64,000 bases of DNA from NCBI GenBank assembly GCA_965140785.1, contig OZ223510.1, positions 224,001-288,000 of the forward strand. The letters run 5' to 3'. The DNA comes from an uncultured Ruficoccus sp. Lineage in GTDB: Bacteria > Verrucomicrobiota > Verrucomicrobiia > Opitutales > Cerasicoccaceae. Positions within the stretch are counted from its first letter, which is position 1. Each line of letters starts with the position of its first letter. Under the pieces are notes generated by a model, which searched no databases, was not told the DNA's origin, and worked only from the letters and a program-made list of their open reading frames with translations. Position numbers and translations under genes: made by a program. Of the stretch, positions 41,502-60,875 are shown one piece after another.

Positions 41502-41554
41502 TGATTCAGAACTCCTTATATAGTTCGTCGGGTTTGTCAATTGTATTGCAGCGG

Positions 41555-41602: not shown

Positions 41603-41647
41603 AAATACCTCCCCCACGTAGATTGATATGCAACAGGCAGAGCAAAC

Positions 41648-42148: not shown

Positions 42149-42214
42149 GTGCTCAGACTATCCGGTATTTACCAAGCAGTAAAATCCAAAACCACTCAAA
42201 CCGAAGGAACCGAA

Positions 42215-42502
42215 ATGACATCAGAAGAAACGATCCGCCTTACTGAGGCTGCACAATCAATCGGGCTGACAAAATTCCCCGATTTGCAAATGGAAGTCTG
42301 CGACTGGGAAACTCGCGTTTCCTACAGTGAACGCAACGGCGTTGAATACGACCACCGCGGGCAAATTTGCGTTATGCTGTTTGAGCGTCTTGATGAGGCT
42401 AAAGCCCGTCGTCTTTACTTCTCGAATCGGTATCCAGATTGGCGGGTATATCGTCGTGGCAATCGGGTTGTTATCACCCTCAAGGAAAAGGCCGTGGCAT
42501 GA
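42215..42502 (+). CDS. Phage hypothetical protein
   Basis: AAGGA RBS; stop overlaps the next ATG (ATGA). Confidence 0.55.
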   Translation: MTSEETIRLTEAAQSIGLTKFPDLQMEVCDWETRVSYSERNGVEYDHRGQICVMLFERLDEAKARRLYFSNRYPDWRVYRRGNRVVITLKEKAVA

Positions 42503-42900
42503 GTACCCCAAGCGCCCTATCCGCTCTGCGGTCTGCCCGTGCTCAAGTGGATCTGATCCACTGCGGATTACATCATTCTTTCGGTTGCATGGGCGAAGTT
42601 GCCCTGGACGCTATGCGGGATGAATTGCTCTCTTACTTAGAGGCTGAAATTTTGCTCCTCCCCGTGGAGGCGCAAGCGTCGGAACCTTCGGCGGGGGGGC
42701 GGGCAATGAGTGGTATCGAGCCCGCTCCCACACGAGGTTTACCGCGCATGTTCATGCGTTCGGAACCCCGCGACAAGACCGTCTGCTTTGTCCTGACGGA
42801 ACGCGAACGCAAGCGGCTTAGATCTATGGCTAAATCCCAGGGCATCACGGTTTCCGCGCTGTGTGCCGAATGGATCACAGAAAGGCTTTCTGATGCGTGA
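42499..42900 (+). CDS. Phage protein with a C-terminal RHH-like DNA-binding domain
   Basis: 'VCFVLTERERKRLRSMAKSQGITVSALCAEWI'. Confidence 0.5.
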   Translation: MSTPSALSALRSARAQVDLIHCGLHHSFGCMGEVALDAMRDELLSYLEAEILLLPVEAQASEPSAGGRAMSGIEPAPTRGLPRMFMRSEPRDKTVCFVLTERERKRLRSMAKSQGITVSALCAEWITERLSDA

Positions 42901-42992
42901 CAATCGTCACCATCAAGGCGGGAGCGGGAGGTTGGCGAGCACGCCGTCAGCCTCCCGTATTCGTTTTTCACTACACACACCCACGTTGCCCC

Positions 42993-43130
42993 ATGCTTCC
43001 GTATGACGCTCAAGAATTCTTTGTAGGCGTAGGCGCTTGGCTCGCTTTTTTCGGGGCTGCGTGGTGGTCGCAAGTCGCGATCCGTTTTTTCAAACGGATG
43101 TTCGATGCAGCATCGGACATTCCTTCGTAA
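42993..43130 (+). CDS. Small hydrophobic minor coat protein (pVII/pIX-like)
   Basis: 45 aa with a single TM segment, immediately upstream of the major coat gene. Confidence 0.55.
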   Translation: MLPYDAQEFFVGVGAWLAFFGAAWWSQVAIRFFKRMFDAASDIPS

Positions 43131-43158
43131 CCCAACCCAAACCGAAAGGTATCGTATC

Positions 43159-43392
43159 ATGAACAACTGGAAAAACAAGCTCCTCGCTGGCGGTGTCGTT
43201 CTCGCCTCCGGCGTTAGCGCTCACGCTCAGACCACCGGCGTCGATTACTCGGCCTTGCAGAGTGCAGTCACCGGGGAAATCCCTGGCGTTCTGACTGCCG
43301 GTCTGGCCATCGGTGCCGCCGCCGTCGGCCTGCTCGCCGCTCCCAAGGGCGTACGCTTCATCAAGAAGATGTGGTCCGCCATCGCTGGCTAA
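43159..43392 (+). CDS. Major coat protein (pVIII-like)
   Basis: Signal peptide ending AHA, amphipathic segment, TM helix and basic C-terminus 'KGVRFIKKMW'; followed by a terminator. Confidence 0.85.
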   Translation: MNNWKNKLLAGGVVLASGVSAHAQTTGVDYSALQSAVTGEIPGVLTAGLAIGAAAVGLLAAPKGVRFIKKMWSAIAG

Positions 43393-43395
43393 ACC

Positions 43396-43437
43396 GGGGA
43401 GGGGGGCGAATCCCGCCTGCCCCCTACCCTTTTTTTT
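43396..43437 (+). terminator. Intrinsic terminator after the major coat gene
   Basis: G-rich/C-rich stem followed by T8; same position as the central terminator of Ff-like phages. Confidence 0.7.
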
Positions 43438-43440
43438 GCC

Positions 43441-43578
43441 ATGACTGACACGCAATTACTGCAAGAAATTCTGACTCAGGCTGAGTTTGCGAACGCTCAG
43501 CTTCGGGTGATGTTTCAGGCCGAAATTGCAGCGGTCATCATCCTTATTTGGTCAATCTTTTGGGCTCAACTTCGATGA
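43441..43578 (+). CDS. Small TM protein (45 aa), probable virion component; not in the ORF track
   Basis: MTDTQLLQEILTQAEFANAQLRVMFQAEIAAVIILIWSIFWAQLR*; ATGA overlap with the next gene. Confidence 0.6.
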   Translation: MTDTQLLQEILTQAEFANAQLRVMFQAEIAAVIILIWSIFWAQLR

Positions 43579-44762
43579 ACAGGCATCTGTATATACTGTT
43601 CATGCTTTACGCGGCTTATGTTCAAGCCGCTGAGCCGGTAGCTTCATGGTCTGGTGTGGTCACTTCAACCACCAGTTATGGAACATACACCATGAATTGC
43701 AGCTTTGATCTTTTCGGTACAGAGGGCGCTTATTACATCGAACCGAATAGCTTCGATGCAGTAAGAGACGACGGTTATGTCGTTCCCGGTGCCCAATTAT
43801 TCTATGAGCAGATTGAGGGCGGCATTAAGTTTTACCGTGGGGGTTCTATATCTTACTCGGTTCACGAATTATTCGCGTCACAAGACCCCGACCCCGATCC
43901 GGACCCTGACCCTGACCCCGGCGAAGAAACGGACGACGGGCTATATATGCATAATGCGGAGTCGGACGAAATCCATAACGGGACCGATGAGCCTCAGACG
44001 TACATTTACAGCATCGTGCATGAGGATGGCACGGTAGAGACCGGGGAAATCACGCTGCAGCCGGGAGAGTCCGCCACGATCAAGGGCGGTAGCCGATTAG
44101 ACCCCTATTCCATGAGCGTATGGAAGAAAAACCCGGACGGAACGCTTACCAAGGTTGGGGACTATGCGTCCTCAAGTGCTGAGCACACCTCCGACACGCA
44201 ACCGGGCTCAAGCACTCCCAGTGTGACGCATTCGGACGGCTCGACCACATCGGCCCTTGAACCTAATAGCAGAGGCCGCACGGATTCATCAGGGGGCAGT
44301 GCGGACACGGCAATTATCGATGATAACTCAGAGGCCCGGCACCAAGAGCAACTAGAGCAGGACCGCAAAATAGCCGAGGCCGAAAAAGCCGAGTTGCAAC
44401 GCATTCGAAAAGCCATCGGTAAAGACGGGGACGGCTCCGGCGTATCTGCCGACGATGACGAATACCCCGAAGGCCCGGACTGGAGCACGTCCAACATTGA
44501 AGCCCTCGATAACGTTGAGGGCATGATTGATAGTGTGATTGGCAAACTGCCCTCCATCGAAGCCCTGCCGGTCGTCAGCGGTCGTAACTATACCTATGAC
44601 ATCAACGGCGGCGATTTCATGGATATGACGTTCAACTTTACGATCGATCTGACGCAGTACATTTCCGCCATCGAGCTAATCAGGACCTTAGAGGAAGCCC
44701 TGATCATCATCATGTTTATCATCGCTGCCATTCGCATGGTGCGGGGAGGTTTTGCCGGATGA
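43575..44762 (+). CDS. Adsorption/minor coat protein (pIII-like)
   Basis: Signal peptide, beta-rich domains, (DP)n and S/T/G linkers, C-terminal TM anchor. Confidence 0.75.
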   Translation: MNRHLYILFMLYAAYVQAAEPVASWSGVVTSTTSYGTYTMNCSFDLFGTEGAYYIEPNSFDAVRDDGYVVPGAQLFYEQIEGGIKFYRGGSISYSVHELFASQDPDPDPDPDPDPGEETDDGLYMHNAESDEIHNGTDEPQTYIYSIVHEDGTVETGEITLQPGESATIKGGSRLDPYSMSVWKKNPDGTLTKVGDYASSSAEHTSDTQPGSSTPSVTHSDGSTTSALEPNSRGRTDSSGGSADTAIIDDNSEARHQEQLEQDRKIAEAEKAELQRIRKAIGKDGDGSGVSADDDEYPEGPDWSTSNIEALDNVEGMIDSVIGKLPSIEALPVVSGRNYTYDINGGDFMDMTFNFTIDLTQYISAIELIRTLEEALIIIMFIIAAIRMVRGGFAG

Positions 44763-45115
44763 GCATTTTGGGCAAGATGGAAGATAGCATCGGCTGGATG
44801 CAGAAGCTTTCCAAGCCGCTCAAGCTGCTGTTTGCCCCTGTCATCGGTTTTCTGACCGTGGCCTATGCCGTGGTAGCCTATGGGATGACGATGCTTTCAC
44901 GCCTGCTTCTTTGGATCGATAGCCGGGTGGCCGATCTGGACCTTTCCGTGGGAGGGCATCACCTCGATTCGGTCGCAACGGATTTTTGGGTAACGATCAA
45001 TACCTTTATCCCGGTGGACCTCGTCTTTGCCCTCGGAACAACACTGCTTGCTCTCCGGGGCGTCATGGCCGTGGTCCGCATTGTCAAGTCGTGGATTCCA
45101 ACCATGTCCGGCTAG
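44759..45115 (+). CDS. Minor coat protein (pVI-like)
   Basis: 118-aa hydrophobic protein ending 'VRIVKSWIP', located between pIII and Zot. Confidence 0.7.
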   Translation: MSILGKMEDSIGWMQKLSKPLKLLFAPVIGFLTVAYAVVAYGMTMLSRLLLWIDSRVADLDLSVGGHHLDSVATDFWVTINTFIPVDLVFALGTTLLALRGVMAVVRIVKSWIPTMSG

Positions 45116-45117
45116 TT

Positions 45118-46305
45118 ATGAAAGACGCCATCTTCAGAGTCTTTGCCGGTACGCTCGGCAGCTACAAGTCTTATCACGGTGTTGTCGAAGCTCTCGAAAC
45201 CTTGGAGCGCGGCGGTATCGTCATGACGAATATCGAGCTTCGTTGGGACCGCATAAAATACTGGTTCGAAGACGAAAAGGATTTGCTCCTGGACGATAAG
45301 CAATACGTCCACATCGACCCGGAGCAGGCTTCATCGTTCGTGAATCTGTTGGTGAAGGGCGAACGCGATAAGCCGAACAAGCTCATTATCGATGAAGCGG
45401 GCCTTCATCACAACACGATGGACAAGCGACAGATGGACCGCGTCGTGTTGGAAATGATCGTCCACGCCCGTAAGCTTTTCATCGATACGGTTTTCATCGC
45501 TCACCACTTTACCGAGATCCTCGCGCAGATCCGCAACAAGGCTCAAAGCGTCATCTGGTTTCGGGATCTGCAAAAGATTAAATGGCTGGGGATCTCTGTG
45601 CCGGTTCCGGCCTACATCTTTTCGGAAGTCGATGCCCGCAACCCGAAGCTGAAGTATGATTCGGCGTTCCGCTGGAAAAAGAAATTCGTCTATAAGCTCT
45701 ATGTCTCCCATGACATTCAGTCGAAGGCGCTTGAGGTCATCCAGACCAAGCCTTTGATCGAGGTTAAGCGCGTCCAGCATGCTGTAACGAAGTCGGATAT
45801 CCTCCGCCGCTCGGCCAAGCGCTGGGTGCGCCGTCTGGTCTTTGGCGGGGCCATGGTCTGGGCCGGGATGCTCTTTGCCGGCCAAGCCGCGCCCGAGCCG
45901 GCCAGCGTGCCGGCGACTGATTCCAGCCAGGTTAAAACGCCTGAGCCGGTCGCCGCGGCAAAACCTGCGCAGACCGTCGAAGATCCCGCGCCCGCGCCTA
46001 AACCGGATCGCTCGATCAAGTCCGTGTCGTTCATGGGCCGCGCTCGGATGCTGGAGCCGACACGCGGGGATCAGGTCGGTTACTGCACCTTTGATTTCGT
46101 CAGCCTGCGCCTGGGCGACGGTCGCGTCATCCGTGAGACGCATCCCGACTTTGGCGGCTTTCGTCGCTCGGACAATACCGCGCTTATCGCGGGCGAGGTG
46201 TACACCTACAAGCAAGAAGATTTCCCGGCTGATCAGCTGGGCCAAACCAACCACAAAAACACAATCCAACTACTCAAAGATAATGAAACAATTAGTAATC
46301 CGTGA
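45118..46305 (+). CDS. Zot/pI morphogenesis ATPase
   Basis: Walker A 'GTLGSYKS', 'TNI', Walker B 'LIIDEA', 'HARK', a TM segment and a periplasmic tail. Confidence 0.88.
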   Translation: MKDAIFRVFAGTLGSYKSYHGVVEALETLERGGIVMTNIELRWDRIKYWFEDEKDLLLDDKQYVHIDPEQASSFVNLLVKGERDKPNKLIIDEAGLHHNTMDKRQMDRVVLEMIVHARKLFIDTVFIAHHFTEILAQIRNKAQSVIWFRDLQKIKWLGISVPVPAYIFSEVDARNPKLKYDSAFRWKKKFVYKLYVSHDIQSKALEVIQTKPLIEVKRVQHAVTKSDILRRSAKRWVRRLVFGGAMVWAGMLFAGQAAPEPASVPATDSSQVKTPEPVAAAKPAQTVEDPAPAPKPDRSIKSVSFMGRARMLEPTRGDQVGYCTFDFVSLRLGDGRVIRETHPDFGGFRRSDNTALIAGEVYTYKQEDFPADQLGQTNHKNTIQLLKDNETISNP

Positions 46306-46615
46306 CGAAAATATCGAGGTCCAGCATACTGAAGAATCCGTTAAGGATGGTAAGCGTTATCCGTCCTCGATCATGATCACCATCGCCGCCAGCGGCTTTG
46401 ATTCGCAGATGTCGTTCTTCTTGGATATGTCGCCGGAAGCTCTCAAGCTGCTTAATATTGAGGAAGTCGGCACCAGGAAGCGCCACAAGGTAAAGGAAGC
46501 TATATTCGTCATCGCTCCGGGCTTCGGCAAAAGCAACTTCTCGAAGATCCGCGCCGAGCACCTTCAGAAGTTCGACGCCAAGCCCTACGTTGAAAATCCA
46601 CTGGCTGCTGCGTAA
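46283..46615 (+). CDS. Phage protein, possible ssDNA-binding (pV-like)
   Basis: 110-aa beta-rich protein near rep; function inferred from size and context only. Confidence 0.45.
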   Translation: MKQLVIRDENIEVQHTEESVKDGKRYPSSIMITIAASGFDSQMSFFLDMSPEALKLLNIEEVGTRKRHKVKEAIFVIAPGFGKSNFSKIRAEHLQKFDAKPYVENPLAAA

Positions 46616-46951
46616 TGCACCTGTACGACGGTAGCGCACTTGGGGAGGTCGGGCCTATGGGTCCGGCCTCTCTGTCTTTCGGTGCCGACGTTGCCCCTTC
46701 CAATAGAGGCCACCAGCCGCAGGCGGGTCTCCCGTCATCCCGGCTTGACCAAGCTTTAGCTTGGTCCCCTGGCCAACTGTTTTATCCCCCACTGAAAAAG
46801 CTGTATCCAGCTTTTGCTCACCCGTGGCGGTCACGCCACGTCAAACCCCTGAAAACGCGCCAGAGGGGCCACAGAACGCCCCATTTGGCCCTTCTCGTAT
46901 CCCACATCAAAGAAAAAGCCCGCCCTGCGGTAACAGGTCGGGCCTTCACAA

Positions 46952-47896
46952 ATGGAAAATCTAGGAGAATTTTCGATGCACAGCCCTGTACATTCATCAC
47001 AGAATGTCAAGTCTCGAACGAAAGAGGGGCGCAACGAATCGCTCGCCAGCGCGGCCCCGCCGCGCGGCAGCGATTCGGCCGCGCCCCTTCCTTGTCTAGA
47101 AACAAACAACTCAACCGAAAGCTACAGGCCGACCGCCCAAAAAGCCTCTAAATTCATCGTCAATGAGGCGGCCTTAGAGCTCATTCAATCCGAAGGTATA
47201 GAGACAATCCTGTTTACGACGTTGACCTTCCCCCGCCCTGTCACCCTCAAGGAGGCACAGAAGGCATGGAATAGTGCTGCTACCCATGCTTTACGCCCTG
47301 CCATCCCTAAAGCTCTGCGCATCCTGGAGCCTCACAAGACAAAGCAACCGCATTACCACCTCTTGGAGGCCACCGGGAAGGATGTACGCCGGGGGTTCGA
47401 CTTCGAGGCTTACCAGCGGGCAAGGTCCGTTCATTGGGCCAGCGCTGAGGGGCGCAAGGCTACCCGCGAGTATGGGGCCAGTGCCAACGATGACTTGCGC
47501 GAGTCCTGGGCATTTCACCGGCGTTTGGTGCGGTTCGGCTTTGGCCGGTCGGAGGCCGTCCCTATCTACAAAGTCGGGGAAGCCGCTGCCGACTATGCCT
47601 CTAAGTACGTGGCCAAGGAAGATCGACCCGTCGAATACAAGGGCGCTCGGCTGTTCTCGGCTATGAACTGGAAGCCGTCCACCCGGAGAGGCTTTGGGTT
47701 CGTGGACTCGGGCCGGGCTTGGCGGCTGGCGGTCGCACGGATCGCGGAGGACATGGGCTTTACCTCTGAGGCCGACTTTCGCCGGGAGTTCGGCCCCAAC
47801 TGGGCTTGGGGCCTGCGCGGAACCATCTTCAGCATTGCCGAAGAAATCAAAGCCCAATATCGCAAACGGCCCTTAGATGATGCAAAAGGAGTTTGA
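46952..47896 (+). CDS. Rolling-circle replication initiator (HUH endonuclease)
   Basis: Motif 1 'FTTLTF', motif 2 'PHYHLL', motif 3 'YASKY'; start may be 46976. Confidence 0.88.
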   Translation: MENLGEFSMHSPVHSSQNVKSRTKEGRNESLASAAPPRGSDSAAPLPCLETNNSTESYRPTAQKASKFIVNEAALELIQSEGIETILFTTLTFPRPVTLKEAQKAWNSAATHALRPAIPKALRILEPHKTKQPHYHLLEATGKDVRRGFDFEAYQRARSVHWASAEGRKATREYGASANDDLRESWAFHRRLVRFGFGRSEAVPIYKVGEAAADYASKYVAKEDRPVEYKGARLFSAMNWKPSTRRGFGFVDSGRAWRLAVARIAEDMGFTSEADFRREFGPNWAWGLRGTIFSIAEEIKAQYRKRPLDDAKGV

Positions 47897-48149
47897 TTTT
47901 GCCCGCGAATACACCCACGGCCTGCGCCCGGTCGTGTGGGGAGTTCGAAAGCGCCTAAAGGTCGATGAGGTTTACAAGATCGTCCCGGATCACTTGGCCG
48001 ATCTCCCGGCGATCTACGTTGCCTCCCGTGTCCAGGCACGATCAATGGCCCGGTTTTACTCGGCCCTACCGGGAAAGGGGTTCGTGCTTGTCTTTAAGGG
48101 ACGGAAAGTAATTCGAGAACGCAGGCCCAAGGCTATTCCATGGGACTAA
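47877..48149 (+). CDS. Phage hypothetical protein
   Basis: Overlaps the rep stop; basic, 90 aa. Confidence 0.5.
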   Translation: MMQKEFDFAREYTHGLRPVVWGVRKRLKVDEVYKIVPDHLADLPAIYVASRVQARSMARFYSALPGKGFVLVFKGRKVIRERRPKAIPWD

Positions 48150-48249
48150 GTATTGCTTGCTTGCATGTGCACATTCTACGCAATGATGCATAAGTCGTTT
48201 TGTTACTGCGTTTCCTTATTTACATGGTGAATAATAGCCTTAGACTGGC

Positions 48250-48762
48250 ATGAATAACATGAATCGTGTAGCAAAACATCTAGAAATGCACTCGATAGGA
48301 TTGAAGGATGCCGTTGATATTGATTTATTTGGGAGGAGTGCATTCAATAGGTTTTATTATTCTGCTTACTGGACTGTTCGGGATAGCTTGTCGCCGATAC
48401 GACCAAGCATCTCTAAGCAGCCACATAAAAACATGCCCATTTATTTAAAAAACTCCTTCAAGAATTATCTTTTAAAGAAATGTACAGTACTAGAATCTAA
48501 AAAAATAATAAAACCATCTGAATCTAAAAGAATTCAGTCGATAATTCGAAGTCAATTAATGTCGATATCTAGTTCACTTGAAAACGCCTATTACGTTAGA
48601 TGTATTGCAGATTATTACCTTGAAGAAAAAGCCATACTTATTGGAAATAAAATCAGGCTAGGAGGCATGTCCTCTTCAGACGTGTCATCTATTGACACCA
48701 AAGTTAAGTCAGCAACTGATACTTTAGTAAAAACATGTCATGAAAATGGACTTTATCAATAA
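48250..48762 (+). CDS. HEPN-domain protein (retron effector candidate)
   Basis: 'RSAFNRFYYSAY' and 'R..ADY' motifs of HEPN (UPF0332-like) proteins; AT-rich cargo. Confidence 0.75.
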   Translation: MNNMNRVAKHLEMHSIGLKDAVDIDLFGRSAFNRFYYSAYWTVRDSLSPIRPSISKQPHKNMPIYLKNSFKNYLLKKCTVLESKKIIKPSESKRIQSIIRSQLMSISSSLENAYYVRCIADYYLEEKAILIGNKIRLGGMSSSDVSSIDTKVKSATDTLVKTCHENGLYQ

Positions 48763-49477
48763 ACTAGATGATTTCCTTAAGGACTATGCGAATGGGTCAT
48801 ATGATCTAATTGACGTAATAGACTCTCCCGATGGATACATAATTACTATTTCTACGAAACTAAAAGGGAGATCGGATCGATCAAAAAGACTTGTAGTAAC
48901 AAGGCTTTTGGACGAATTTAAAGATGCGTCTAAGGTTATAGTAAGGGAATCTGAAGTTGAATCTAATTTAGAAAAATTACTATTCATACCCATAAAATCT
49001 AGCATTGGGGTCGACCCAATTGGGTTAAACTTTGAAATTGAGAAAAATAAAGCCAAGATTGAATTAACAGTAAAAAATACAGGCTCAGGAAATAATGAAG
49101 ACATTGAGATTAAAATTAAAGATTTAATCCATGGCGTGCTATCGCCAATAGGAATAAGCATTTCAAGCCTGTCAGTTATAGTCAAAAGCGGATCTAAAAT
49201 CCCGAATCCATTGATAATCAAAAGTATTATTGTTTTGGCTCCCGTTGACTTTGAGTCTCTCTATGACTGCATAAATGAGAGATATGGAAGCGAGTATGAG
49301 TTCAACCATAAGGTGCTTAGGCGTATAATAGACGACCTAAGAAAGGAAAAGCTTGTGGTATGGTCGCCAAATGGATATCTTGCCTCTCCTAGGGCCATAG
49401 ACGCGTTGTCTGGCAGTAAGAGTCGTAATTCTCTGGACATTCAAAGAGCGTTAAATATGAAATTTCAGCAATGGTAA
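48740..49477 (+). CDS. Retron-associated protein with a C-terminal winged-HTH
   Basis: 'LRRIIDDLRKEKLVVW..NGY' wHTH-like segment; overlaps the HEPN gene and precedes the ncRNA and RT. Confidence 0.65.
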   Translation: MKMDFINKLDDFLKDYANGSYDLIDVIDSPDGYIITISTKLKGRSDRSKRLVVTRLLDEFKDASKVIVRESEVESNLEKLLFIPIKSSIGVDPIGLNFEIEKNKAKIELTVKNTGSGNNEDIEIKIKDLIHGVLSPIGISISSLSVIVKSGSKIPNPLIIKSIIVLAPVDFESLYDCINERYGSEYEFNHKVLRRIIDDLRKEKLVVWSPNGYLASPRAIDALSGSKSRNSLDIQRALNMKFQQW

Positions 49478-49483
49478 ATTTCA

Positions 49484-49671
49484 CCAGGATAGGTGGTGTC
49501 GATGTCACTGCGAAAGGGTGCATCACCCTTGTTTGCAGAGGTCTGGCACAGAAGGTCCGGCATCTTACTGGATGCCGCCTCCTTCGTAGCCGGCATCCAG
49601 TAAGATGCCGACGCTCAACGGAAGTATCATATAGCTTCGCTAAATGACAATGCATGCACCACCTATCCTGG
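49484..49671 (+). ncRNA. Retron msr-msd RNA
   Basis: 15-bp perfect a1/a2 inverted repeat (CCAGGATAGGTGGTG 49484-49498 / CACCACCTATCCTGG 49657-49671); msr stem-loops (AAGGGTG-CAT-CACCCTT); msd 20-bp perfect hairpin 49558-49610. Confidence 0.85.
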
Positions 49672-50639
49672 GTATTTTTGGAAATGACCTAAAACGACTC
49701 GAAGCAAATTTCGAGTTTATTAGGACAAACGAGTTTGATCAATTAAAGCGACTATATGGAAAGGGACTTCCTCCAGTTGTCTCTGCGCATTCTGTAGCCT
49801 TAATTTTCGGATATTCGCCTCAATTCGTTGGGTTAATGATGAAGCGTCCAAATCGCTTTTATAGAACATTTCAGATTCCAAAAGGTAAAAACAAAGTTAG
49901 AAAAATAGAAGCTCCGCGTGTATCTTTAAAAATAATTCAAAAATGGATCGGACATCATATTGCTCGCCAAATTAAACTTCCAAGCCATGTGTGCGGTTTC
50001 GTACCAGGAAAAAGCATAATAGATGGCGCAATGGCTCATTGTGGATGTGAGTGGTTATTTCAAACGGATATAAGCAATTTCTTCCAGAGTACACGGTTCT
50101 ATGCTGTTACTAATGCTCTCAGAACAATAGGTTATTGCGAGCGTGGTTCAGTGACATTAGCTAGGCTCTGCTGCTTAAATGACAACTTAGCGCAAGGAGC
50201 TCCAAGCAGTCCTGCCCTATCTAATCTTGTTTTCAGAAAAATAGACAGCGAGTTAATCCAATTTTGCTCAATGCACAATTATACATACACAAGGTATGCG
50301 GATGATATCGCGGTCTCAGGAAGTGGAAAATATCCATCTGAGGTTAAAAGATCGATCGAGAATATTATTGATTCCCATGACTACAAAATCGCTACTCTGA
50401 AAAGTAAGGTCTCTATCGCACCAGCGAGAAGGAAAGTATATGGCTTACTTGTAAATGGTAAGGTACCACGCCTTACAAAAGGATACCGTAACAGAATCCG
50501 GGCCTTGAAACATTTATCAGAGCATGGACGCATCAAAGAGGACGATTATTCAACAATTATGGGGCATATATCGTATGCAGAGAGTGTCGAAGCTAGGATT
50601 GCCGACATCTTATCGAAGCAAAATGAGTCGGATCGGTAA
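49644..50639 (+). CDS. Retron reverse transcriptase
   Basis: 'YRTFQIPK', 'R.IEAP..LKIIQ', 'GFVPG', region X 'GAMAH', 'DISNFF', 'QGAPSSP', 'YADD', region Y 'VYGL'. Confidence 0.93.
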   Translation: MTMHAPPILGIFGNDLKRLEANFEFIRTNEFDQLKRLYGKGLPPVVSAHSVALIFGYSPQFVGLMMKRPNRFYRTFQIPKGKNKVRKIEAPRVSLKIIQKWIGHHIARQIKLPSHVCGFVPGKSIIDGAMAHCGCEWLFQTDISNFFQSTRFYAVTNALRTIGYCERGSVTLARLCCLNDNLAQGAPSSPALSNLVFRKIDSELIQFCSMHNYTYTRYADDIAVSGSGKYPSEVKRSIENIIDSHDYKIATLKSKVSIAPARRKVYGLLVNGKVPRLTKGYRNRIRALKHLSEHGRIKEDDYSTIMGHISYAESVEARIADILSKQNESDR

Positions 50640-50700
50640 AACGATTGACGCATTTTCGATTTATCTCGACATTTAATGATAAGAAATTCTAATAATTCAA

Positions 50701-50798
50701 GCCGTGGACATTTGTAAATCTTGCGGGTAGAATATAGGGCTTCGCACGTGCTGCGTATCCATTTCTGGATATTGGAAAAGCTGTTTATTGTGCGTATT
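50701..50798 (+). repeat. dif-half-site repeat, copy 1 (right end of the prophage)
   Basis: CGTGGACATT..TAGAATATAGGG..TCGCACGTGCTG-hairpin-TGTTTA-TTGTGCG. Confidence 0.8.
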
Positions 50799-50834
50799 CG
50801 TATGTCTTTATGTTGACATAGCTAACGCCAATCA

Positions 50835-51308
50835 GTGACTTGGGCCTACCATCTCATGAAGCCTAATATCCCTACTCTAGCAAAGGTTATACTCTGGTTG
50901 TCATTGTTAGCTGGTGGCTGGAACGCGATCATTGGCGGTGTTTTTTTATCTTCCCCACCTCAGCAGAATTCATTGCTGGATGTCGATGGGATGAAAAACG
51001 TTTTGATCCTCTCCAGCCTCCTTGGGCTATACTTCCTGATCGTATCTATTTCAGCACTCCAGAGAAAGGAAGCAGGACGAAAGGGCTACCTCGTCGGACT
51101 GGTCCTGATGATTTTAGGCACCCTTGCTTGGTATGGCTATAATGTGGCAAGTGCACCTAAGCCGCTTATTATTATTATTGTAGGTGCGGTTGGAATGGTC
51201 ATCCCGATTGGATTGCTGGTGATCCTCTACAGGTATTTCAGCTCACAAACTGTCCGCGAAGCTTACCAGGCAGAGCCAACTACCTGCACACAGGATTACA
51301 AAAACTAA
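50835..51308 (+). CDS. Four-TM membrane protein (cassette A); start may be the ATG at 50856
   Basis: Four hydrophobic segments; the stop codon lies within repeat copy 2. Confidence 0.7.
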   Translation: MTWAYHLMKPNIPTLAKVILWLSLLAGGWNAIIGGVFLSSPPQQNSLLDVDGMKNVLILSSLLGLYFLIVSISALQRKEAGRKGYLVGLVLMILGTLAWYGYNVASAPKPLIIIIVGAVGMVIPIGLLVILYRYFSSQTVREAYQAEPTTCTQDYKN

Positions 51309-51414
51309 TGCCGTGAGGCGTGGACATTCGTGGGACTGGCGAGTAGAATATAGGGTCTCGTACGTGCTGGATCGGGATTTTTGAATCTTAGCGATCCTGT
51401 TTATTGTGCGGTTG
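51291..51414 (+). repeat. dif-half-site repeat, copy 2
   Basis: CAGGATTACAAAAACTAATGCCGTGAGGCGTGGACATT..TAGAATATAGGGTCTCGTACGTGCTG..GCGATCC-TGTTTA-TTGTGCG. Confidence 0.85.
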
Positions 51415-51478
51415 TTGGGTTTGTATAATTAAGCAACCTTGACGATTCGTACATTTCTGAGCATTCCCAATATACCTT

Positions 51479-51814
51479 ATGGCCATCAATAAATCGGATA
51501 TCCATCAGCAGGCAAAACTCGCATTGGCTGCAATCAAAGCAGCGTATAACGCTGAAGATGATGATTCCGATGTGACATTATACGTCGCGCATCATCTGGC
51601 AGAGGTCGATGCTTCCTACTGGAATAATAGATTCCAAACCAATCAGCCAGCCCCCTCGCAGATACTTGACGCGCTGATTCTTTGTTCAGACATTGAAGAG
51701 ATAGACAACCTTGATAGCCTGGACTTTACTCTGCCGGGCCGTGTGACCGACTATCTGCTTTGCGTTACGTTCAATGAAGACGGAGAAGTCGAGGACATCG
51801 CCATGGAAAGCTGA
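51479..51814 (+). CDS. Acidic DUF2004-like protein (cassette B)
   Basis: 'YVAHH', 'DFTL...TDYLLCVTFNEDGEVEDIAMES'; the terminal 'MES' is recalled as typical of DUF2004. Confidence 0.65.
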   Translation: MAINKSDIHQQAKLALAAIKAAYNAEDDDSDVTLYVAHHLAEVDASYWNNRFQTNQPAPSQILDALILCSDIEEIDNLDSLDFTLPGRVTDYLLCVTFNEDGEVEDIAMES

Positions 51815-51849
51815 TTTTGGCCTCGAAACGATCCGCAACTATCACTACG

Positions 51850-51973
51850 CAGGATTACAAAATCTAATGCCGTGAGGCGTGGACATTCCCACTGCTACGT
51901 ACTAAAATATAGGGTCTCGCACGTGCTGAATCAGGATTTCTGAATCCTAGCGATCCTGCTTATTGTGCGAGTT
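51850..51973 (+). repeat. dif-half-site repeat, copy 3
   Basis: CAGGATTACAAAATCTAATGCCGTGAGGCGTGGACATT..AAATATAGGGTCTCGCACGTGCTG..GCGATCC-TGCTTA-TTGTGCGA. Confidence 0.85.
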
Positions 51974-52012
51974 GTCCATTCGGGAAGCTTGCAATCTTGA
52001 CGATCAAATACA

Positions 52013-53381
52013 GGACCACGTAAAGATATCCATAAAATTAGGAAGCAAATAAGGATGTTCATGATAATTAAATTATTAAATATTCAAAGTATTTTACTAA
52101 AAAAAATAGTTTTCAATAACAAAAAGAATAACTTCAAATTTAATAATAGCTCCTTTATTATTATACACATCACAATAATTTGGTGCAGAAAAAATAGTAA
52201 TAACTGCTGGAAATTCATTAGACCCATTCCATTTATACATCTTATACCCATCAATCTAAGCTTCATGTGCCCTAATTACCGAAAGCAATCCACATGCCTT
52301 TAAAAACTTATTAACAGCTTCCATTCTAATAATTAATTCATTATTTAATTAATTAACCCATAAATAAATGAACACCCTCTAACTTCATTTGCCTTAAAGT
52401 CTTAAGGTAAATGTCCATCTTCTGATTCAATTGGATCCGACCATATTAAATCACTAAAAGCAAAAATAAATTGAATTTATAAACTAAAAAACCAAAGTAA
52501 TCCAGATTTTGGTGGTTCAGTGTATCTATCGATTTTTTATAAATCTGCTAACGATCTTAAAGCTGGAGAGATCCCACCATGAATACCTATAAACTTCCCA
52601 TTAATAATAGAACATAAAGGAATCATCTCAAATGATTCCATCATTATCTCATAAATTTCTTAATCGTATTTATAGATACCTTTTTTTAAATTAAATTTTA
52701 AATGGGGTAAAAACATTCATCACGGAAGTTAAAATATGTTGTCATTTAACGACATTCATGGTTACCACGAATAAATTGTATTGTTGTTGGATAGTTTAAC
52801 TTTAATTTAACTATTATTATTAAATCAGATTACCTTAAGAGAATAAAGAAGCACTATCACTTCAATTGAAAAAGAACCTCTATCCACAAAATCTCCAAGA
52901 AATAAATACCTTTAATAAAAATATATCATGCGATTATTTTTACTTTGTATTTTCTGGTTTTCCACCAATATCCAAAATTTTAACTAAATCATAATATTAT
53001 CTTCAATTGAAATTAATAAAATTAAAAGGAATAACCCATGAATATCCCCAACTACTGTTACAGGGTCATCAATTTTCAATATATTACTTTCACTCTCTAT
53101 ATAAAATTAAAATTCAATAAAAATTATCAATTTACTAAAAATATTATTCGTTGCTGAGACTAATTTAATCAAATCTTCCTTTTTAATTCTTCCTTCCTGA
53201 CTTAAATGATCCTTAAGTAATCTCCAGTCAGGTTTTCCTTTAAAAAGCTCAGAAAATATATTAGTAATATCCTACCTTGCAATGAAATAGGAAACATTAA
53301 TGAGGATTCTAATGGCCTATGCGGTGGAGCTCTTACTTTCTTTACTTGGCGATCATTAAAAGGATCTTTTAAAGGCTACAT
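52013..53381 (-). CDS. Calcineurin A (PP2B) catalytic subunit; multi-exon, 3' truncated at the junction
   Basis: With TAR=Gln: '[15 protein letters not shown]', 'GDIHGQYYDL', 'FLGDFVDRG', 'RGNHECRQ', 'HGGISP', 'AHEAQ', 'FSAPNYC', '[15 protein letters not shown]'. Confidence 0.9.
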
Positions 53382-53830
53382 TATTTTTATTGTAATTATT
53401 TTACTTTTATTTTTTTATCAGTTTTCTAATTTAAATTACAAGTTTATTTTATTTAATTTTGCTCAAAAAAAAGTTTTTCTTAGAATAATAATTCTTTAGC
53501 TTTGTTAATAAAAAAACAAAAATTTATTTTTATTATTATTTATAATACTTATTTTTCCAAATTGAATTTATTTATTTCTAACAGAATAATTTATTATATA
53601 AATTCATTAAATTTTTAACAGAATAAAGTAAAATTAAATAAATTTTTTCTATGCAACACCCCTCAGTAATCATAACTTTCTTTAATTATTCATATAGATA
53701 ATTTATCCTCTCTACCAAACAGACCCTACCTAAATAATGCCACCTTAGGTTTTTTTAATTATCTAAATTTTTTGAATTTATTTACAATTATTTCTTTAAG
53801 ATTTCGCCATAAATATAGCCTCCATCAATA

Positions 53831-53898
53831 TAGCCTGAATATCCTCTCTAGCCTGAATATCCTCTCTAGCCTGAATATCCTCTATAGCCTGAATATCC
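53831..53898. repeat. Tandem repeat, about 4 x 18 bp (TAGCCTGAATATCCTCTC)
   Basis: Directly visible; reads (GYSGQR)n on the minus strand with TAG=Gln. Confidence 0.8.
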
Positions 53899-54082
53899 TA
53901 TATATTATGACTAAAAACCTTAATTTTCAGCTCCACCAATCTAATCATACCCTCCATAAGTTTTCCGAAGGCCAGTCATTGAAGAACCATTAAGGCCAAT
54001 AACACATATTTAAAATCTTCCACCTCCTGATAATTAATTTCCTCTGGATAAGGAAGCCAATTATAATTTTTAGATCTCTAAA

Positions 54083-56190
54083 ATGAATGAAAAGATTATA
54101 GTAATAATTAATTTATAATTGAGTTAAACTTTTTTTTTTGTAAGGAATAAAAAAGAAGTTTAGCTGAATAAGAACGTTTATTACAGGATGCTTAAAATTA
54201 GGTGAGAATGGAATTTATAATTGTTTATTTTTAGATTGATTATTTGTAGCATTAAATTGAATAATAAACTTCAGAAAATTCTAATTATAAAGAAACACTT
54301 AAGAAAATGTATATGATTTATGTATAGCAATAAAAATAGCTAGAAGTTTCCTTAATTTTTTATTTTAAATTTAACTAAGAAATCAAAATCAACTGAAATT
54401 GATCTTTAATAATAAAATTCTTCAATGAATGAAAAGAATTGTGAATTTAATGTAAAAAGCTTCTTAAATTTATTGCTAAATTTTCTAGATGAATATTAAA
54501 AATATGATAAATGATCAAGAGCATATGGTTAATTAATATAATTAACAAAACATGATGCATTAAGTTAAAATAATTATAATTAAAAATTAATTTTTAGAAT
54601 GAAATAAAAAATATGACAACTCAATTATAAGATAAACAAATTGTATAAAAACTATTTTATTTAATTATAAACTAGGAAACTCAAGAATTAAAAAGAAAAA
54701 TAAACGATCTTTTAGATTTAAAAAGAAGATTAGAAGACGAAAACTCATCATTGTAAATTTATAATTTTAATAATAATATCAAAGACGCTTTACACTGGAT
54801 AACCAACGTGCTGCCTTTGAAATAGATTGCAAGGAAAGGTAACTCTAAATTTTATTCTTAATTTTACCCAAAAAAGATAAGTAAAATTTGATTAAATAAC
54901 AGCCTGCACAAGAGATGAAATGAATATCCTTAGAATGGAACGCGATGACGCATTTCATAGGCTTGCAGGATTAGCTGATGATGTAATATATATTTAATAT
55001 ATTTCTTTAAAAATTAATAAACAAGAATAAATAATAATTCGAGCAAATTAAATTCTTAGAAGTTGAATTAGCAAGAGCTCGTGGACATGCAGGACCGTAA
55101 CAATAATAATACTCAAATTATGCTCCTCCTCAAGTTGAAATGCCACGTTCTGCGACTCAATCTTCAAACTAAGTAATTTTCTTTCAGTAAATAATAAATC
55201 AATAGGATTGGCTTTAATAAGAAAATTAATAGCTTAAAATGGAAAATGAAAAGCTCAAAAGACAATTAGAAGAAATGCATAAAAGTGAGCTCCTAAAGGA
55301 TGATTAAATAAGATCTTTTTCTTAAAACCCCGAGAGAGCCAAAATGGTTAACTTTACTCCTTAAGAAACAGCACTCAGTACCAATATTCCAGGAAAATTG
55401 GATGATGAATTTATGATTAATATTACGAGTAATTATTTTATAAATAATTTATATGATTTTAGGGGGATTATTAGAGTTAGTTACATTTAAGAGAGAGGCA
55501 ATAACTAATATTATATTTGAAATTTATGTTCGGTCTATTAATCATGCAAATATTAAAAAATAGTTTAATTGTTTTGTAATTATATTAATTTTGTCTTTAG
55601 AAATTCCTTAATATTGTTTATTCTTAATCTGAAAGAATTAAAAGAAAAATATTGGAAAGGGCTAGTTCTTACACTTGAAGCTTATGAAAGGCAAATTTTT
55701 TATTAGTTTTAGAGCTTTTTTATAGATTAAGAAAATTAGCTCGATAATTAACTGCAATTCAAGGAATTCAATAAAGATATCCAAACTTTTATAATAAACT
55801 CAGTTTAGCTGTAGGGTTATTTATTAATTTATCCAGTTATTATTTAATTTAGAAAAATATTAAATGAAAATGTTGATTTCCGAGATAATATAAATAAGTG
55901 GATTGAAGGTACTTTGGCAAATACTATTGGGAAAAAAATTCATGAAAAGCATGAAAAAAATAGAGTAAATTTAATTTTAGAGACTAAATAATTTTTTAAA
56001 GGAATTTTTATTTTTATTCAGATTACTTACAATTAAGTACAGAATTCGTTATCCTTTATAGGGAAAGTCGTTTAATATAGATTTGGATTTAGATAATTTC
56101 CTAGAAAATAAAATTTGTGCTTCTTTAAGAAAGTAAGGCTTTATTTTTAATAATAATAATTTAGAGTGTTAAAAATGGATTTATGAGGAT
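54083..56190 (+). CDS. Putative multi-exon coiled-coil protein (boundaries approximate)
   Basis: Purine-rich exon-like blocks (e.g. 'RDEMNILRMERDDAFHRLAGLADD') separated by GT..AG AT-rich introns. Confidence 0.35.
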
Positions 56191-56280
56191 GAAACTTTTT
56201 TTATAATATAAAATTTATTTATTCCTTTTTTTTTAAACTCTAAATTATTTAAAAAATTTTTATTTTAATTGTTTGAATAC

Positions 56281-57901
56281 TCAACACTTTTTTTTTTCCT
56301 CCTCTTAAATATGTGGATGTGCAACAGTAAATGTTTCATTCACTACTGTGGAAGGACTAAATGTATCAACAATTTTTTAAGAATCAGCCCATAAGCTCTA
56401 AATTTCAAAAATCTGAATACATTTATAACTTAGTTCCTAAAAATCCAATAATAAATTTTTCTAATTTTATAAATTAAACTTATTAGGATTCATCATTTGA
56501 TTTAAATTTTATTTCTTTTATTAAAGGATCAGCAACATAAATTTCAGTCTAAAATCCAATTCTTTCATAAATAGAAACATTAGTATTATAAATTGAAAGA
56601 GCACCAAAATCACTCTTATAATCAACAACCACAAATATACTAGTGATTAATGTTAAAATTAAATAATTTTTTTACGCTGGGACATCATTCATTTTCGTAA
56701 TAATATTTGTGACTTTGCAAGAAGCTATTTTATTTTTATTTCTTCCCTCAACTAATTCTGATAGACTCGCAATTTAATAATCTTTATATTATTCACTTTA
56801 TCCTGGAGTCTTGATTGAAGGGATATTTTTTATCATCATTGTCAATTATTTTTATTTAATTTTTCCCTTAAAAAAACAGCTAAATTATTAAGCAAAAATA
56901 AATTAATAACTTTATTTGCAATTAAATTTTGCATACTAGATACTTTTTAATAAATCGATTTCACAATTTAATCAATTTAAAACTCTTTATCCATTTCTCC
57001 TGCTTTCTAATATTCCTTCATTGCTAATTAATAATCCTCTAGATAATTATAAATCTAACATTAAAAAAAATAAAAATTTAATAAACAAAAATCTTACAGT
57101 TGCACGATTATAATGCATATCAGGATTCTTTTCATCCTTTAAACGGTTTTCAGCTTAATTATAAGCTTTTAACGCTAACTAAAGTTCATTTATTGTTTTC
57201 ATATTCACAAAGAAATTGCTCATATAAGCATTACCTAAAACATACCAGCTCTCCCCATCATTAAGATCTAAATTAAGAGCCTCCTTTGCGATATCAATTG
57301 ATTTTTAGACATTTTATTATCTTACTGAATCTATATCAACAATTTTTTATATATATACTAATTAATTAATTAACCTTAGCCAAGTTATCTCAAAATTATT
57401 GAAATACTTCTCAGTGCAACTTTATTTCGGCCACACTATTCATTTGAACCTTCAAAACATTTATACGCGCCTTCATAATCTTTCTTTTTCCATAGAATAT
57501 GTCCTATTTTATTAATTTAGATTTAGATTTTTTACCCAATGTATTCCAGCAATCAGAATTTAAGGGATTTAATTTTAACTTTAATTTATTTAAGTAGAAA
57601 TAGTAAAATTACTGATTTAGAAAGAGATTCTTCAGCTTATTTTGTATATTATGGGAGGATGTCCATTAATTTTCCTTTTAAATACATTGCTTTTCCCTTT
57701 TCATTTTTACTGATTTCTAAATAATGTTAAATTAAATTTAAAAAATGCACATTAATCGAGAAGTTAATCTAATTGCTTATTTATTTCATTTATTTTTGGT
57801 TTAATTTTTTCATTTGATTCTAATGAAAACTCTTTTTTTTAAGCTTCAATAAGTTCTGTGATTTCCTTTTCAAATTAATCAATTGTTTTCGTTTCTTCCA
57901 T
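56281..57901 (-). CDS. TPR protein, TTC5-like (multi-exon)
   Basis: 'DGESWYVLGNAY...ALKAYNQAE...NPDMHYNRAT' resembles the TTC5 TPR segment. Confidence 0.7.
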
Positions 57902-58020
57902 TTAAGTAAAATAAATTTGTTTTTTGATTTAAATTTCAAATTTTTTAAATAAAAATTTAACAAAATATTTATTTTGGGGCAATTAGTTTTTGTTTTTAAT
58001 TATTTAATTTAAAAAAAACA

Positions 58021-58866
58021 TCATTAATCTTATTTCTAATTGGACCCCTGCATTTTTTCCTCAAATCCCTCATCAATCTAAAGCTTTTACAGCGCAACTT
58101 TTTACTACTCTTCAAAATCTTTCATTTCCTCTAAATATTTCTACTTCTATTTTTCAAACTCTTCTAATTAATCCTTATTTTTATCAGCCAATTCAGTCAC
58201 TTTTTTCGTATAATCCTAAATAGATGAATTTAATTCCGTAATCATATCTTATTACTGTTTCATACTTTAAGCTAATTCATCCATTTGGCCTTAATTAATA
58301 ATTATAATATAAAATTTAATTAATTAACGTGCTTGTTCTTCATTTTTATCTTTCAATTCTTTAATTAATTATTCACTTTTTTCTTTTGTTTCGTTGAATG
58401 CTATTTCTTATTCTTCAATTATTTTATCTAATTAAGTTTTAGTAATTTAAAAGAAATAATAATACCCCAATCTATTTCATTTTCAACATGCTCAAAGCCA
58501 AATGTCCATTGTAAATCCATTTAATTTTCAGTTAATTCAATTTTATGTTTTTAATCCTTTTCTAATTCTTATTCAATAATTTCTTCTGCATTATTTAATA
58601 CTTCTACAGTGTATTCGAGCTTATGATCTTAATTAGAAATTAAAATTATTAATTAATTATTACTTAAGGGGAATATTAAAGTTTCTTAAACAATCCATTT
58701 ATCTCCGCCTTCAACTTAGAGATAATTTTATTTAATTAAATAAATTTTTACTTGGATGCATTTAAATTCCGTTTGATATGTTTTCATAATTTCCTTTTAA
58801 TCTTAATTTTTCCAATTTCTTTCCAGGACTTATCATTGTAAATTTTACTTGGCAATTTTCAACCAT
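58021..58866 (-). CDS. Putative coiled-coil protein (approximate, multi-exon)
   Basis: Open E/K/Q-rich frame under TAR=Gln. Confidence 0.3.
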
Positions 58867-59056
58867 TTTTCCTTTATTTAAAGAAATTATTTTTATTTTT
58901 GAATTTATTTAAATTTAAATTAAATTGTTTGATAATATTTAGCTTATTAAGAAAATTTTAATTTAAAATCTAAAATAAAATAAGAGATAAAATTTAATTT
59001 AGAAACCTCAATTCAAAATAAATTCAAAATCAAAATAAATTATAAAATTAATTTTA

Positions 59057-59851
59057 ATGTCACATTTAACAATAAATTATAATAATAAATTGTATACCCT
59101 TTCTTTTATAATTGAAGAGGATATGCTGACATTATAGCTTTAAAATAAAAATAAAGCTTGGATTAATTTTAAATTATGAGATGAATTTACTAAAAATTGT
59201 TAAAAACTCTCTACTCTCCTCGGAATTTCATCTTATCTTTAACATCAAATTACTGAAAATAAATTTAATTTTGAAAAGCTTAACAAGGATATGTTTAAAC
59301 TAACAATTTTTTAAACTGAAATTATTGAAGAATTATATTTTTTGTTTGTTAGAAATTTTACAAACAAGCAAAAAACTTAAAGCAAGGTTAATTATTATAA
59401 AAATTAGTTTTTTTAGGAAATAATAATATATGGGAATAATATTAGTTATTAAGAAATGATTGAAAATTTAAAAAAAATTGAAAAAGAATAAACAGTTTTA
59501 AGATTTGAATTTTAGAATATTTATGATTAATTTGGGGAAAAGTTTTCTAGGTTTAATGAAATGGCAGAAGATGTTATATTAAAAATTCCATAACAAAATT
59601 AAGAAATTTTAGAATTAGATAAAGTTTAAATCTTTTAATATATTAGCAAATTTTAGAATTAGTCTGAAATATAAAATAATAATATTTCATCTTTATTATA
59701 AGCATCGGAATAATAAAAATAAACATGCATCATTAATTCCTTAGAATCGGCTAAAGAAAAATTAAATTAATTTGAATAATAATTAGATGACTTCTTAAAT
59801 TCTAAATAGAAAAGATAATATGAAGATTTCCCATTTAAAAATTATGAATGA
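59057..59851 (+). CDS. Putative hypothetical protein (approximate)
   Basis: Open under TAR=Gln, probably one intron, ends in TGA. Confidence 0.3.
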
Positions 59852-59919
59852 TAAAATAATTGTAATGAAAATCATCTACAAAAATAAATTAATAATAGTT
59901 TTTATAAATTAAATGATCT

Positions 59920-60794: not shown

Positions 60795-60875
60795 TTTTGA
60801 AAATTAAATTATGTTATTTAAATATTTTAATATTTATATATTTTATTTGATTTTTTATTTAAGATATAAAAAAAA

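Follow-up and report, generated by a model that had tools for sequence, protein, structure and literature searches.

In a 64,000-nucleotide stretch from an uncultured Ruficoccus sp. (contig OZ223510.1 of assembly GCA_965140785.1; the whole stretch is called the window here), the chromosomal dif site is followed by a complete inovirus prophage with a retron (unit A) and then by much smaller units, B, C and D, separated by a repeat of about 120 nt. We consider it very probable that this locus, which is no integron, is a stack of elements integrated at dif by the host recombinases XerC and XerD, that is, an array of integrative mobile elements exploiting Xer (IMEX). For the small units, the reading we favour, with a probability of roughly 0.45, is that they entered such a stack as larger phage-type elements and were later reduced. 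A Xer-built stack next to dif had already been proposed in a sequence-only reading of this DNA, and that geometry stands: there is one intact dif, the hybrid junctions are direct, congeners have the repeat beside their dif, the host has XerC-like and XerD genes, and the contig has no other recombinase. The genome holding the window (G000, 4.36 Mb, with the array on its contig C39) was compared with 41 related genomes, 401 genomes of the order and 16 of the family. Independent data came from the Logan contigs of three public sequencing runs (X1, X2 and X3), which drop rare forms.

The 28-mer at the left end of the array is a real chromosomal dif. At up to three mismatches it occurs exactly once in 14 of the 41 related genomes, across the order, whereas the reversed control gave no match. 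On the plus strand it runs from XerD arm through central region to XerC arm, which places the inserted DNA on the XerC side. Its left flank is, by homology, malQ, a 4-alpha-glucanotransferase gene. The true right flank is the start of another contig (C19, L178) with lepB, lepA, fabD and a XerC-like gene; the far end of the array is unassembled in G000. The same malQ and lepB/lepA flanks enclose the dif of two relatives, which is near-empty in G002 and is separated from lepB by a single-ORF (open reading frame) stretch of 0.8 kb in G004. The first 10 nt past dif in that stretch (L030 7177-7980) equal the left end of the window's prophage, and it may be the relic of an old insertion.

The elements inserted at this dif bring no recombinase of their own, as a Pfam scan of 41292-52013 found no recombinase domain. 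Both host enzymes are present elsewhere in the genome: the XerC-like protein encoded on C19 matches TIGR02224 with 308 bits, just below the cut-off of that model, and a XerD on contig C48 matches TIGR02225 with 364 bits, above its cut-off. The genome has 14 tyrosine-recombinase matches (PF00589) in total, none of them on C39.

Downstream of dif, the window holds three direct copies of a repeat (117 nt as found by the repeat search, ~117-124 nt in all), spaced 616 and 559 nt apart and with a mean column identity of 80% in a three-way alignment. A 24-nt repeat family joins the three repeat ends to 41264-41287, and the core 13-mer TG(T/C)TTATTGTGCG, which ends each copy, also lies inside the dif 28-mer. 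Exact matches to this core occur at four sites only in the window, namely dif and the three repeat ends, all on the plus strand. At up to two mismatches there were 8 matches against 2.87 ± 1.67 expected, a number reached in 0 of 100 shuffles. Within 41000-52013, the XerC core TTGTGCG is confined to the same four places. A XerD arm is found only at the first of them: its position reads ATTAGACATAA in dif and ATTGGAAAAGC, CTTAGCGATCC and CCTAGCGATCC in the repeats. The repeat search and the exact matches thus bear out the earlier description of three repeats that end, in one orientation, in the spacer and XerC core of dif, with the XerD arm replaced by other sequence. Dispersal of the repeat through the genome, named beforehand as evidence against a tie to dif, was absent, since in all 4.36 Mb the repeat occurs at this locus alone (three matches with E ≤ 5e-10; the other five with E ≥ 3).

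The term dif half-site, used for these repeats before, covers only part of them. They do share the central region and XerC core of dif, but they are more than a half-site and correspond to a module at the attachment (att) end of a phage, with a promoter-like element. A BLAST search with copy 2 in the 401 order genomes gave full-length matches only in two congeners, G001 and G003, where the module lies 8.3 kb and 7.2 kb downstream of dif, respectively, in the same orientation, and ends in the central region of the respective host (TATTTA or TGTTTA) and the XerC arm. Of the five genomes matched, G025 (26 nt) and G321 (19 nt) gave short, partial matches that were attributed to chance. The DNA inserted next to dif in G001 and G003 shows 70-79% nucleotide homology to unit A, and the G001 insert is 72-81% identical to 41.3-48.0 kb of the window. 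Unit A itself encodes a major coat protein, a Zot/pI-type ATPase and a rolling-circle Rep, as expected of an inovirus, while units B and C carry none of these. Because the module is present as a single copy at the far end of the relatives' prophage-sized inserts, we regard it as the distal att-end module of a family of dif-integrating inoviruses.

A sequence-only covariance model built from five module copies (E ≤ 0.1) placed the module in 6 of the 16 family genomes, with three copies in G000, one each in G001, G003, G012 and G013, and a marginal match in G007. In G012 the match falls on the far half-site of an insert next to dif, and in G013 it overlaps a copy of the dif core 13-mer. The distal end of the G012 insert (L174 10120-10255) holds the module-like sequence CAGGATTAGAAAAACTAAT and two half-sites 35 nt apart, with central regions TGTTTA and TATATA, and could be an att end with dual specificity or else what is left of an older unit after nearly complete deletion. 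Across the order, the dif core 13-mer is present in 204 of the 401 genomes, mostly once. Of six further loci examined, five (G302:C11, G012, G373, G319 and G170) have the same layout, with a full dif and, 6.6-13 kb downstream of it, a half-site that keeps the central region and XerC core while its XerD arm is degenerate.

All five full module copies contain TGGACA, exactly 17 nt, and TAGAAT (TAAAAT in copy 3), and the module pairs are the three best promoter-like pairs in the region (10/12). The -35 hexamer is 100% identical (5/5 copies), and the -10 hexamer with the next six bases has a mean pairwise identity of 93%, whereas the 17-nt spacer between them has an identity of only 46% at constant length. 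Judged on sequence, hexamers that stay conserved while a spacer of fixed length drifts between them are typical of a promoter, or else of a bipartite site for some other protein. A short hairpin follows the -10 hexamer in two registers (ATCCA/TGGAT or GGATT/AATCC). The last 13 nt of the module are 94% identical, and past TTGTGCG the identity drops at once to 40%. Modules 2 and 3 are 80-85% identical to each other and to the G001 module, and 65-69% identical to module 1. In the circular phage, the putative promoter, which is sigma-70-like and points outward, would read across the phage attachment site (attP) on the strand opposite to the RHH gene. Once integrated, it would read into the neighbouring unit, and all ORFs of the small units face that way, so each module's promoter would drive the ORF to its right. 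As the element is placed to read across the attachment site, its transcribed target would change on integration.

The array continues beyond the sequence assembled in G000. In X1, the contig that covers the last part of the array leaves position 52013 for other sequence, and a separate contig of higher depth begins exactly at 52014; the window is therefore an assembly chimera at 52013/52014. From 52014 onward, it is DNA of another, more abundant organism of the same sequencing study; X3, from the same study as X1, matched this AT-rich part by short stretches only. What had been read as a eukaryotic junction cutting a further unit is a real break in the assembly at ~52012, but it is not biology. 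One X1 contig covers 42694-51391, from unit A through unit B into module 2. A second, of 1263 nt, covers 51376-52013 and then runs on for 625 letters that are not on 52014 onward. Together, the two span units A and B to module 2, and module 2 through unit C and module 3 into unit D. The extension past 52013 contains a stretch matching 51854-51887, seven other letters and a stretch matching from 51336, and it reads TGGACA, a new 17-nt spacer and TAGAAT. This indicates a putative fourth module, which looks like a mosaic of copies 3 and 2 and whose position within the 625 letters would make unit D well under 1 kb long. A second sample, X2, contains 77% of the sampled words of 50600-52012. One X2 contig links 41202 to 41663, omitting dif and the RHH gene, with a short side of 28 nt; the phage region there has ~20 single-base differences from the window, so the X2 strain is related and not identical.

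Units B and C each hold one plus-strand ORF between a short leader and a module (Table 1). Neither contains a rep or recombinase gene, and neither has phage-backbone content by Pfam or homology. The earlier statement of one unrelated gene per unit is upheld in this respect; its label 'DUF2004-like' is not, being the source name of one homologue. The unit B protein has, by eye, four hydrophobic stretches, and a search of 5.8 billion proteins returned the window's own gene as the sole match. The unit C protein has six homologues by protein search, and a locus search added 108 metagenome and 43 genome loci from Verrucomicrobiota, Planctomycetota and Proteobacteria. No Pfam match at E ≤ 0.01 was found for either protein and no NCBIfam match for the 111-aa unit C protein, whose AlphaFold2 model (predicted local distance difference test score, pLDDT, of 84) had no fold match in the PDB at E ≤ 0.001. 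The leaders and cargo of units B, C and D showed no homology to the phages or dif regions of the relatives.

The closest named homologues of the unit C protein are from Verrucomicrobiota and Akkermansiaceae. In the loci with the closest homologues, L111 (an Akkermansiaceae metagenome-assembled genome, 7785-14030) and L116 (Persicirhabdus sediminis, 1-2370), small same-strand ORFs lie between ~124-nt imperfect palindromes (GAGAACAAG...GACGTTCTC), and these arrays look like putative attC cassettes. None of the four long ORFs scanned upstream of the L111 array was an integron integrase.

The strong hairpins of the locus sit at 46600-47090, in an intergenic region of the phage that units B and C lack, and these units therefore have no evident origin or packaging signal. 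A miniphage reading, with both signals inside the units, was for this reason not supported, although the module may hold a cis-acting site.

In the IMEX stack, each integration would keep the chromosomal XerD arm in a single working dif. Older elements would be pushed away on the XerC side, leaving junctions with a degenerate XerD arm, the central region of the host and the XerC-arm core. Each unit's XerC arm would have arrived with that unit, and the newest unit, the prophage, would adjoin dif. Units B, C and at least D would be cut-down members of the phage family in which precisely the cargo slot and the module are left. The deletions behind this, site-specific or selected, would have had their end point at the XerC core, and the units would have persisted because their cargo gene is driven by the promoter of the module upstream. 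We infer the Xer catalysis, the promoter activity, the order of arrival and the mode of reduction from the arrangement of the locus.

Reduction has parallels at the same site in the relatives: G001 retains a 215-nt RHH fragment at the dif locus and G002 a ~60-nt hairpin remnant, both of them IMEX scraps. It also agrees with the lack of an evident origin or packaging signal in the small units and with the finding that arrays of modules occur in no other genome searched. The sequence-only reading had mentioned remnants reduced to att plus cargo as an alternative to mobile cassettes; we find them at least as likely, and the part of the Vibrio account considered here (PMC12715192) supplies a published precedent.

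Several observations weigh against reduced phages, or against the stack as drawn. Three consecutive units share one compact plan, and homology ends right after TTGTGCG in all three. No unit keeps the left end of the phage (hairpin plus RHH), which the proven remnants in G001 and G002 do keep; random deletion does not predict this. A pseudo-Xer site that could have guided deletions was not visible at the border of ORF90 and cargo in the full-length phages. Modules 2 and 3 resemble one another and the G001 module more than they do module 1; this fits a separate lineage of small elements equally well, and so does the mosaic look of the fourth copy. As to the promoter, promoter-like matches are not enriched regionally (14 against 10.2 ± 2.9 expected), and outward transcription from the module is a prediction. 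Dependence of the integrations on Xer is likewise deduced from the sites.

These observations lend weight to an account that we take seriously while leaning against it, in which ~0.6-kb circles, each with one gene, a module and their own XerC arm, integrate at dif by XerCD unaided. Such cassettes may travel inside a phage genome, or may be replicated and packaged in trans by the inovirus, and the array would on this account be a platform for cassettes based on dif. At least three consecutive units with an identical plan, exact ends at the XerC core and no scraps of phage backbone are what it would produce, and the 7-nt XerC core is intact in every unit. In a circle, the module promoter would read over attP into the unit's single ORF. 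Modules 2-4 form a similarity group of their own, no pseudo-site that could explain precise trimming is visible at the edge of the cargo in the full-length phages, and the unit C gene family is cassette-borne elsewhere, between the attC-like repeats of L111 and L116.

Against free-moving cassettes stands their absence from everywhere else. More than one module per genome was found only in G000, the other carriers among the 16 family genomes having one copy each. Outside G000, no contig of the 401 order genomes had sub-kb spacing of core sites or at least three of them on one strand. Scans of genome, metagenome and viral contig collections for the module pattern gave 0 matches, although the modules of G001 and G003, which fit the pattern, were likewise not returned. 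The proposed 'integron analogue' of independently moving units is thus not borne out by a second genome with more than one module among the 401 order genomes, the 16 family genomes and these three public collections. Circles of ~0.6 kb had been named as something to look for, and two runs, searched as contigs, from which rare forms are dropped, showed no joint of the kind that a circle or a deletion the size of one unit would leave. None of 123 loci with a gene of the unit C family had a dif-like site beside it; a single exact dif-core match ~1 kb upstream of a homologue in L147 is compatible with chance. The units also lack the hairpin-rich intergenic region and hence an evident origin or packaging signal. 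Finally, the outer 4 nt of their XerC arms (TATT, GTTG and AGTT) fit the dif of the genus worse than those of the full phages.

The strongest form of the cassette account seems to us rather unlikely. In it, one-gene circles of 0.56-0.62 kb with the phage-derived ~120-nt promoter-attP module as their sole cis equipment would be the smallest Xer-integrating elements, and exchange with the phage cargo slot would make dif and the inovirus together a platform for the capture and expression of cassettes. If this were true, it would parallel the integron, run by the housekeeping XerCD, with units expressed from the module of their neighbour.

It is very improbable that the array is an artefact of mis-assembly or a local tandem duplication with no link to Xer. 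The contig is indeed chimeric at 52013/52014 and the end of the array unassembled, but one independent X1 contig runs from unit A into module 2 and another from module 2 into unit D, the X2 sample holds most of the sampled words, other genomes have the module conserved in the same position next to dif, and the units are not duplicates, as the genes that they carry are unrelated.

Least credible of all is that the repeats serve an integron integrase as attC sites. The look of the array, with one small same-strand ORF between ~120-nt repeats at 0.56-0.62-kb spacing, and the unit C homologues between attC-like palindromes in other Verrucomicrobia speak for it. However, the module is no imperfect palindrome, and its single-strand folds are weak (z-scores -0.8 to -2.7) with unpaired ends, and the repeat ends in 13 nt identical to the host's dif. 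The recombinase near the locus, on C19, is best matched by XerC (308 bits) and scores 116 bits with the integron-integrase model, for which the cut-off is 265; C39 has none of the genome's 14 tyrosine-recombinase matches. Nothing in G000 corresponds to the attC-like repeats of L111 and L116, and around unit C there are neither attC remnants nor flanks homologous to those cassettes. An integron array was rejected accordingly: no integron integrase is present in the assembled sequence, and the repeats do not fold into an attC palindrome with pairing ends.

IMEX fall into three mechanistic classes, the CTX, VGJ and TLC types. In the CTX type, attP is folded single-stranded DNA in which two inverted dif-like sites pair to give a duplex resembling dif. 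In our module, the XerC core could pair with an upstream CGCAC over 5-7 bp only, a pairing that is not kept in all five copies. The TLC type has an attP without a XerD arm, a central region identical to that of dif, and the activator XafT (DUF3653). The site features of the modules fit this type, but a Pfam search of 15 ORFs (E ≤ 0.01) found no match to XafT/DUF3653, nor to RstR-type proteins.

The satellites RS1 and TLCphi also stack at dif, next to a helper filamentous phage with which these small elements have their att and regulatory ends in common. They measure several kb and encode their own replication and regulatory proteins, whereas units B and C encode one unrelated small protein each and have no recognisable origin. 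In Acinetobacter, the pdif modules of Rep_3 plasmids have a complete XerC-XerD site on either side, and the orientation of these sites alternates, each being inverted relative to the next. As discrete Xer-bounded gene modules shuffled between replicons they are, in the sources considered, the nearest published idea of a Xer cassette. The sites described here differ from that definition in being direct, in their poor XerD arm, in lying at the chromosomal dif and in deriving from a phage end. Integron cassettes resemble the units in having small same-strand ORFs between ~120-nt repeats and transcription from upstream, but here there is neither IntI nor an attC palindrome, and the junction is the host's dif core.

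The closest likeness is to the IMEX arrays of Vibrio (CTXphi, RS1, TLCphi and VGJphi; CTX-I, CTX-II and dif-type double jelly-roll (DJR) prophages), and the sequence features of the locus place it among them. These, too, are direct stacks at dif without an integrase, in which a single dif works and the XerD arm of the hybrid sites is poor. Their elements likewise have, as far as the account considered describes them, an inovirus backbone with variable cargo beside the lysogeny/att end. According to the same part of that account, the arrays comprise up to six units, with hypervariable cargo regions and degraded elements that retain cargo; the phages are 6.7-9.5 kb and the cargo regions 1.9 kb in size (PMC12715192). 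Our locus belongs to another phylum, its 0.56-0.62-kb single-gene units are far smaller than the sizes in that account, and its att end carries a conserved promoter-like module. A literature search brought up no account of single-gene units below 1 kb at a chromosomal dif, with the supplements of PMC12715192, which may show small relics, outside its scope. For integron-like cassettes at a chromosomal dif or driven by Xer, it returned only the papers on Acinetobacter dif modules and on IMEX.

IMEX stacks, cargo hot-spots in prophages and relics that retain cargo are thus established in Vibrio, and the present locus extends them to a distant phylum. It adds two features. First, the att end is a discrete ~120-nt module with conserved promoter-like hexamers, placed to read across the attachment site. 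Second, at least three single-gene units of less than 1 kb follow one another, each consisting of cargo and module and nothing else. If the units are relics, prophages would have been trimmed with unusual precision to a gene useful to the host and its driver. If the units move as such, a dimer-resolution system would serve as a general route to capture and express single genes without a dedicated integrase, and there would be a concrete mechanism for refilling the cargo slots of phages.

Table 1. Features of the dif locus in the window (positions on the forward strand of the window).
Feature	Position	Strand	Basis or remarks
Chromosomal dif	41264..41291	+	XerD arm ATTAGACATAA, central region TGTTTA, XerC arm TTGTGCGAAAT
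Unit A, complete inovirus prophage, 9.5 kb	41292..50794	+	Pfam; homology to G001/G003 inserts; hairpins
RHH	41337-41540	-	Pfam; regulator at phage left end
DUF2726	41648-42148	-	Pfam
Coat B (Phage_Coat_B)	43105-43392	+	Pfam 1e-5
Zot/pI	44986-46305	+	Pfam 4.5e-12
Intergenic hairpin region	~46600-47090	.	Between zot and rep
Rep (REP_ORF2-G2P)	46952-47896	+	Pfam 1.2e-4, below curated cut-off
ORF90	47877-48149	+	Last conserved phage gene
Cargo block of unit A, type IX retron	48250..50639	+	Between ORF90 and module 1
HEPN_IX	48250-48762	+	PADLOC E 1.7e-29
HTH_IX	48740-49477	+	PADLOC E 1e-18
23-nt inverted repeat, candidate msd stem	49558-49610	.	Just upstream of RT_IX; no Rfam family matched there
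RT_IX	49644-50639	+	PADLOC E 1.9e-117
Module copy 1, att end of unit A	50678-50794	+	Promoter-like TGGACA-N17-TAGAAT 50705-50733; hairpin ~50755-50772
Module copy 1 end	50771-50794	+	Degenerate XerD arm, central region, XerC core
Unit B, 616 bp	50795..51410	+	~60-nt leader, one ORF, module copy 2
Unit B ORF	50835 or 50856 to 51308	+	Last codons and stop inside module copy 2
Module copy 2	51294-51410	+	Promoter-like 51321-51349
Unit C, 559 bp	51411..51969	+	~68-nt leader, one ORF, module copy 3
Unit C ORF, 111 aa	51479-51814	+	Widespread protein family
Module copy 3	51853-51969	+	Promoter-like 51880-51908; central region TGCTTA
Unit D, first 44 nt	51970..52013	+	Leader shares CTTGACGAT with unit C leader; rest not in assembly
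AT-rich DNA, other organism	52014..64000	.	GC 0.23; joined by mis-assembly; outside the feature

Between the zot and rep genes of unit A, the strongest hairpin (47025-47088, -35.5 kcal/mol) overlaps the annotated start of the Rep ORF, and the hairpins of this region are probably the origin and packaging region of the phage. Two sub-threshold Rfam matches in unit A (sar and ctRNA, 46904-46979 on the minus strand) were taken as generic hairpins. A search of viral contigs with the Rep protein found no relative.

The cargo of unit A is a complete type IX retron gene set (RT_IX, HEPN_IX and HTH_IX), with a GC content of 0.387 against 0.552 in the phage core. The cargo of filamentous prophages is known to include retrons, as described in the part of the literature considered (PMC11630473). 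In G003, the slot is empty and ORF90 abuts the module, and in G001 three small ORFs follow ORF90. With a retron here, nothing in G003 and other genes in G001, the slot behaves like the hypervariable cargo region of Vibrio inoviruses, as far as that region is described in the account cited above.

On another contig of G302 (C73; L172 1-4100), two core 13-mers with a spacing of 3.9 kb belong to a longer direct repeat, which extends over >150 nt and includes both flanks. The sequence on their XerD side is not dif-like, and this may be a tandem element of another kind. A further element lies on the XerD side of dif in both G001 (L027 18215-18229, minus strand) and G003 (L029 about 16795-16809, minus strand); its far end is marked by a XerD arm and central region, beyond which the XerC arm is degenerate (GTCT...). 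The element of G003 holds an inverted homologue of the inovirus backbone in the window, at 67-75% nucleotide identity, which shows the same phage backbone paired with a different type of att end.

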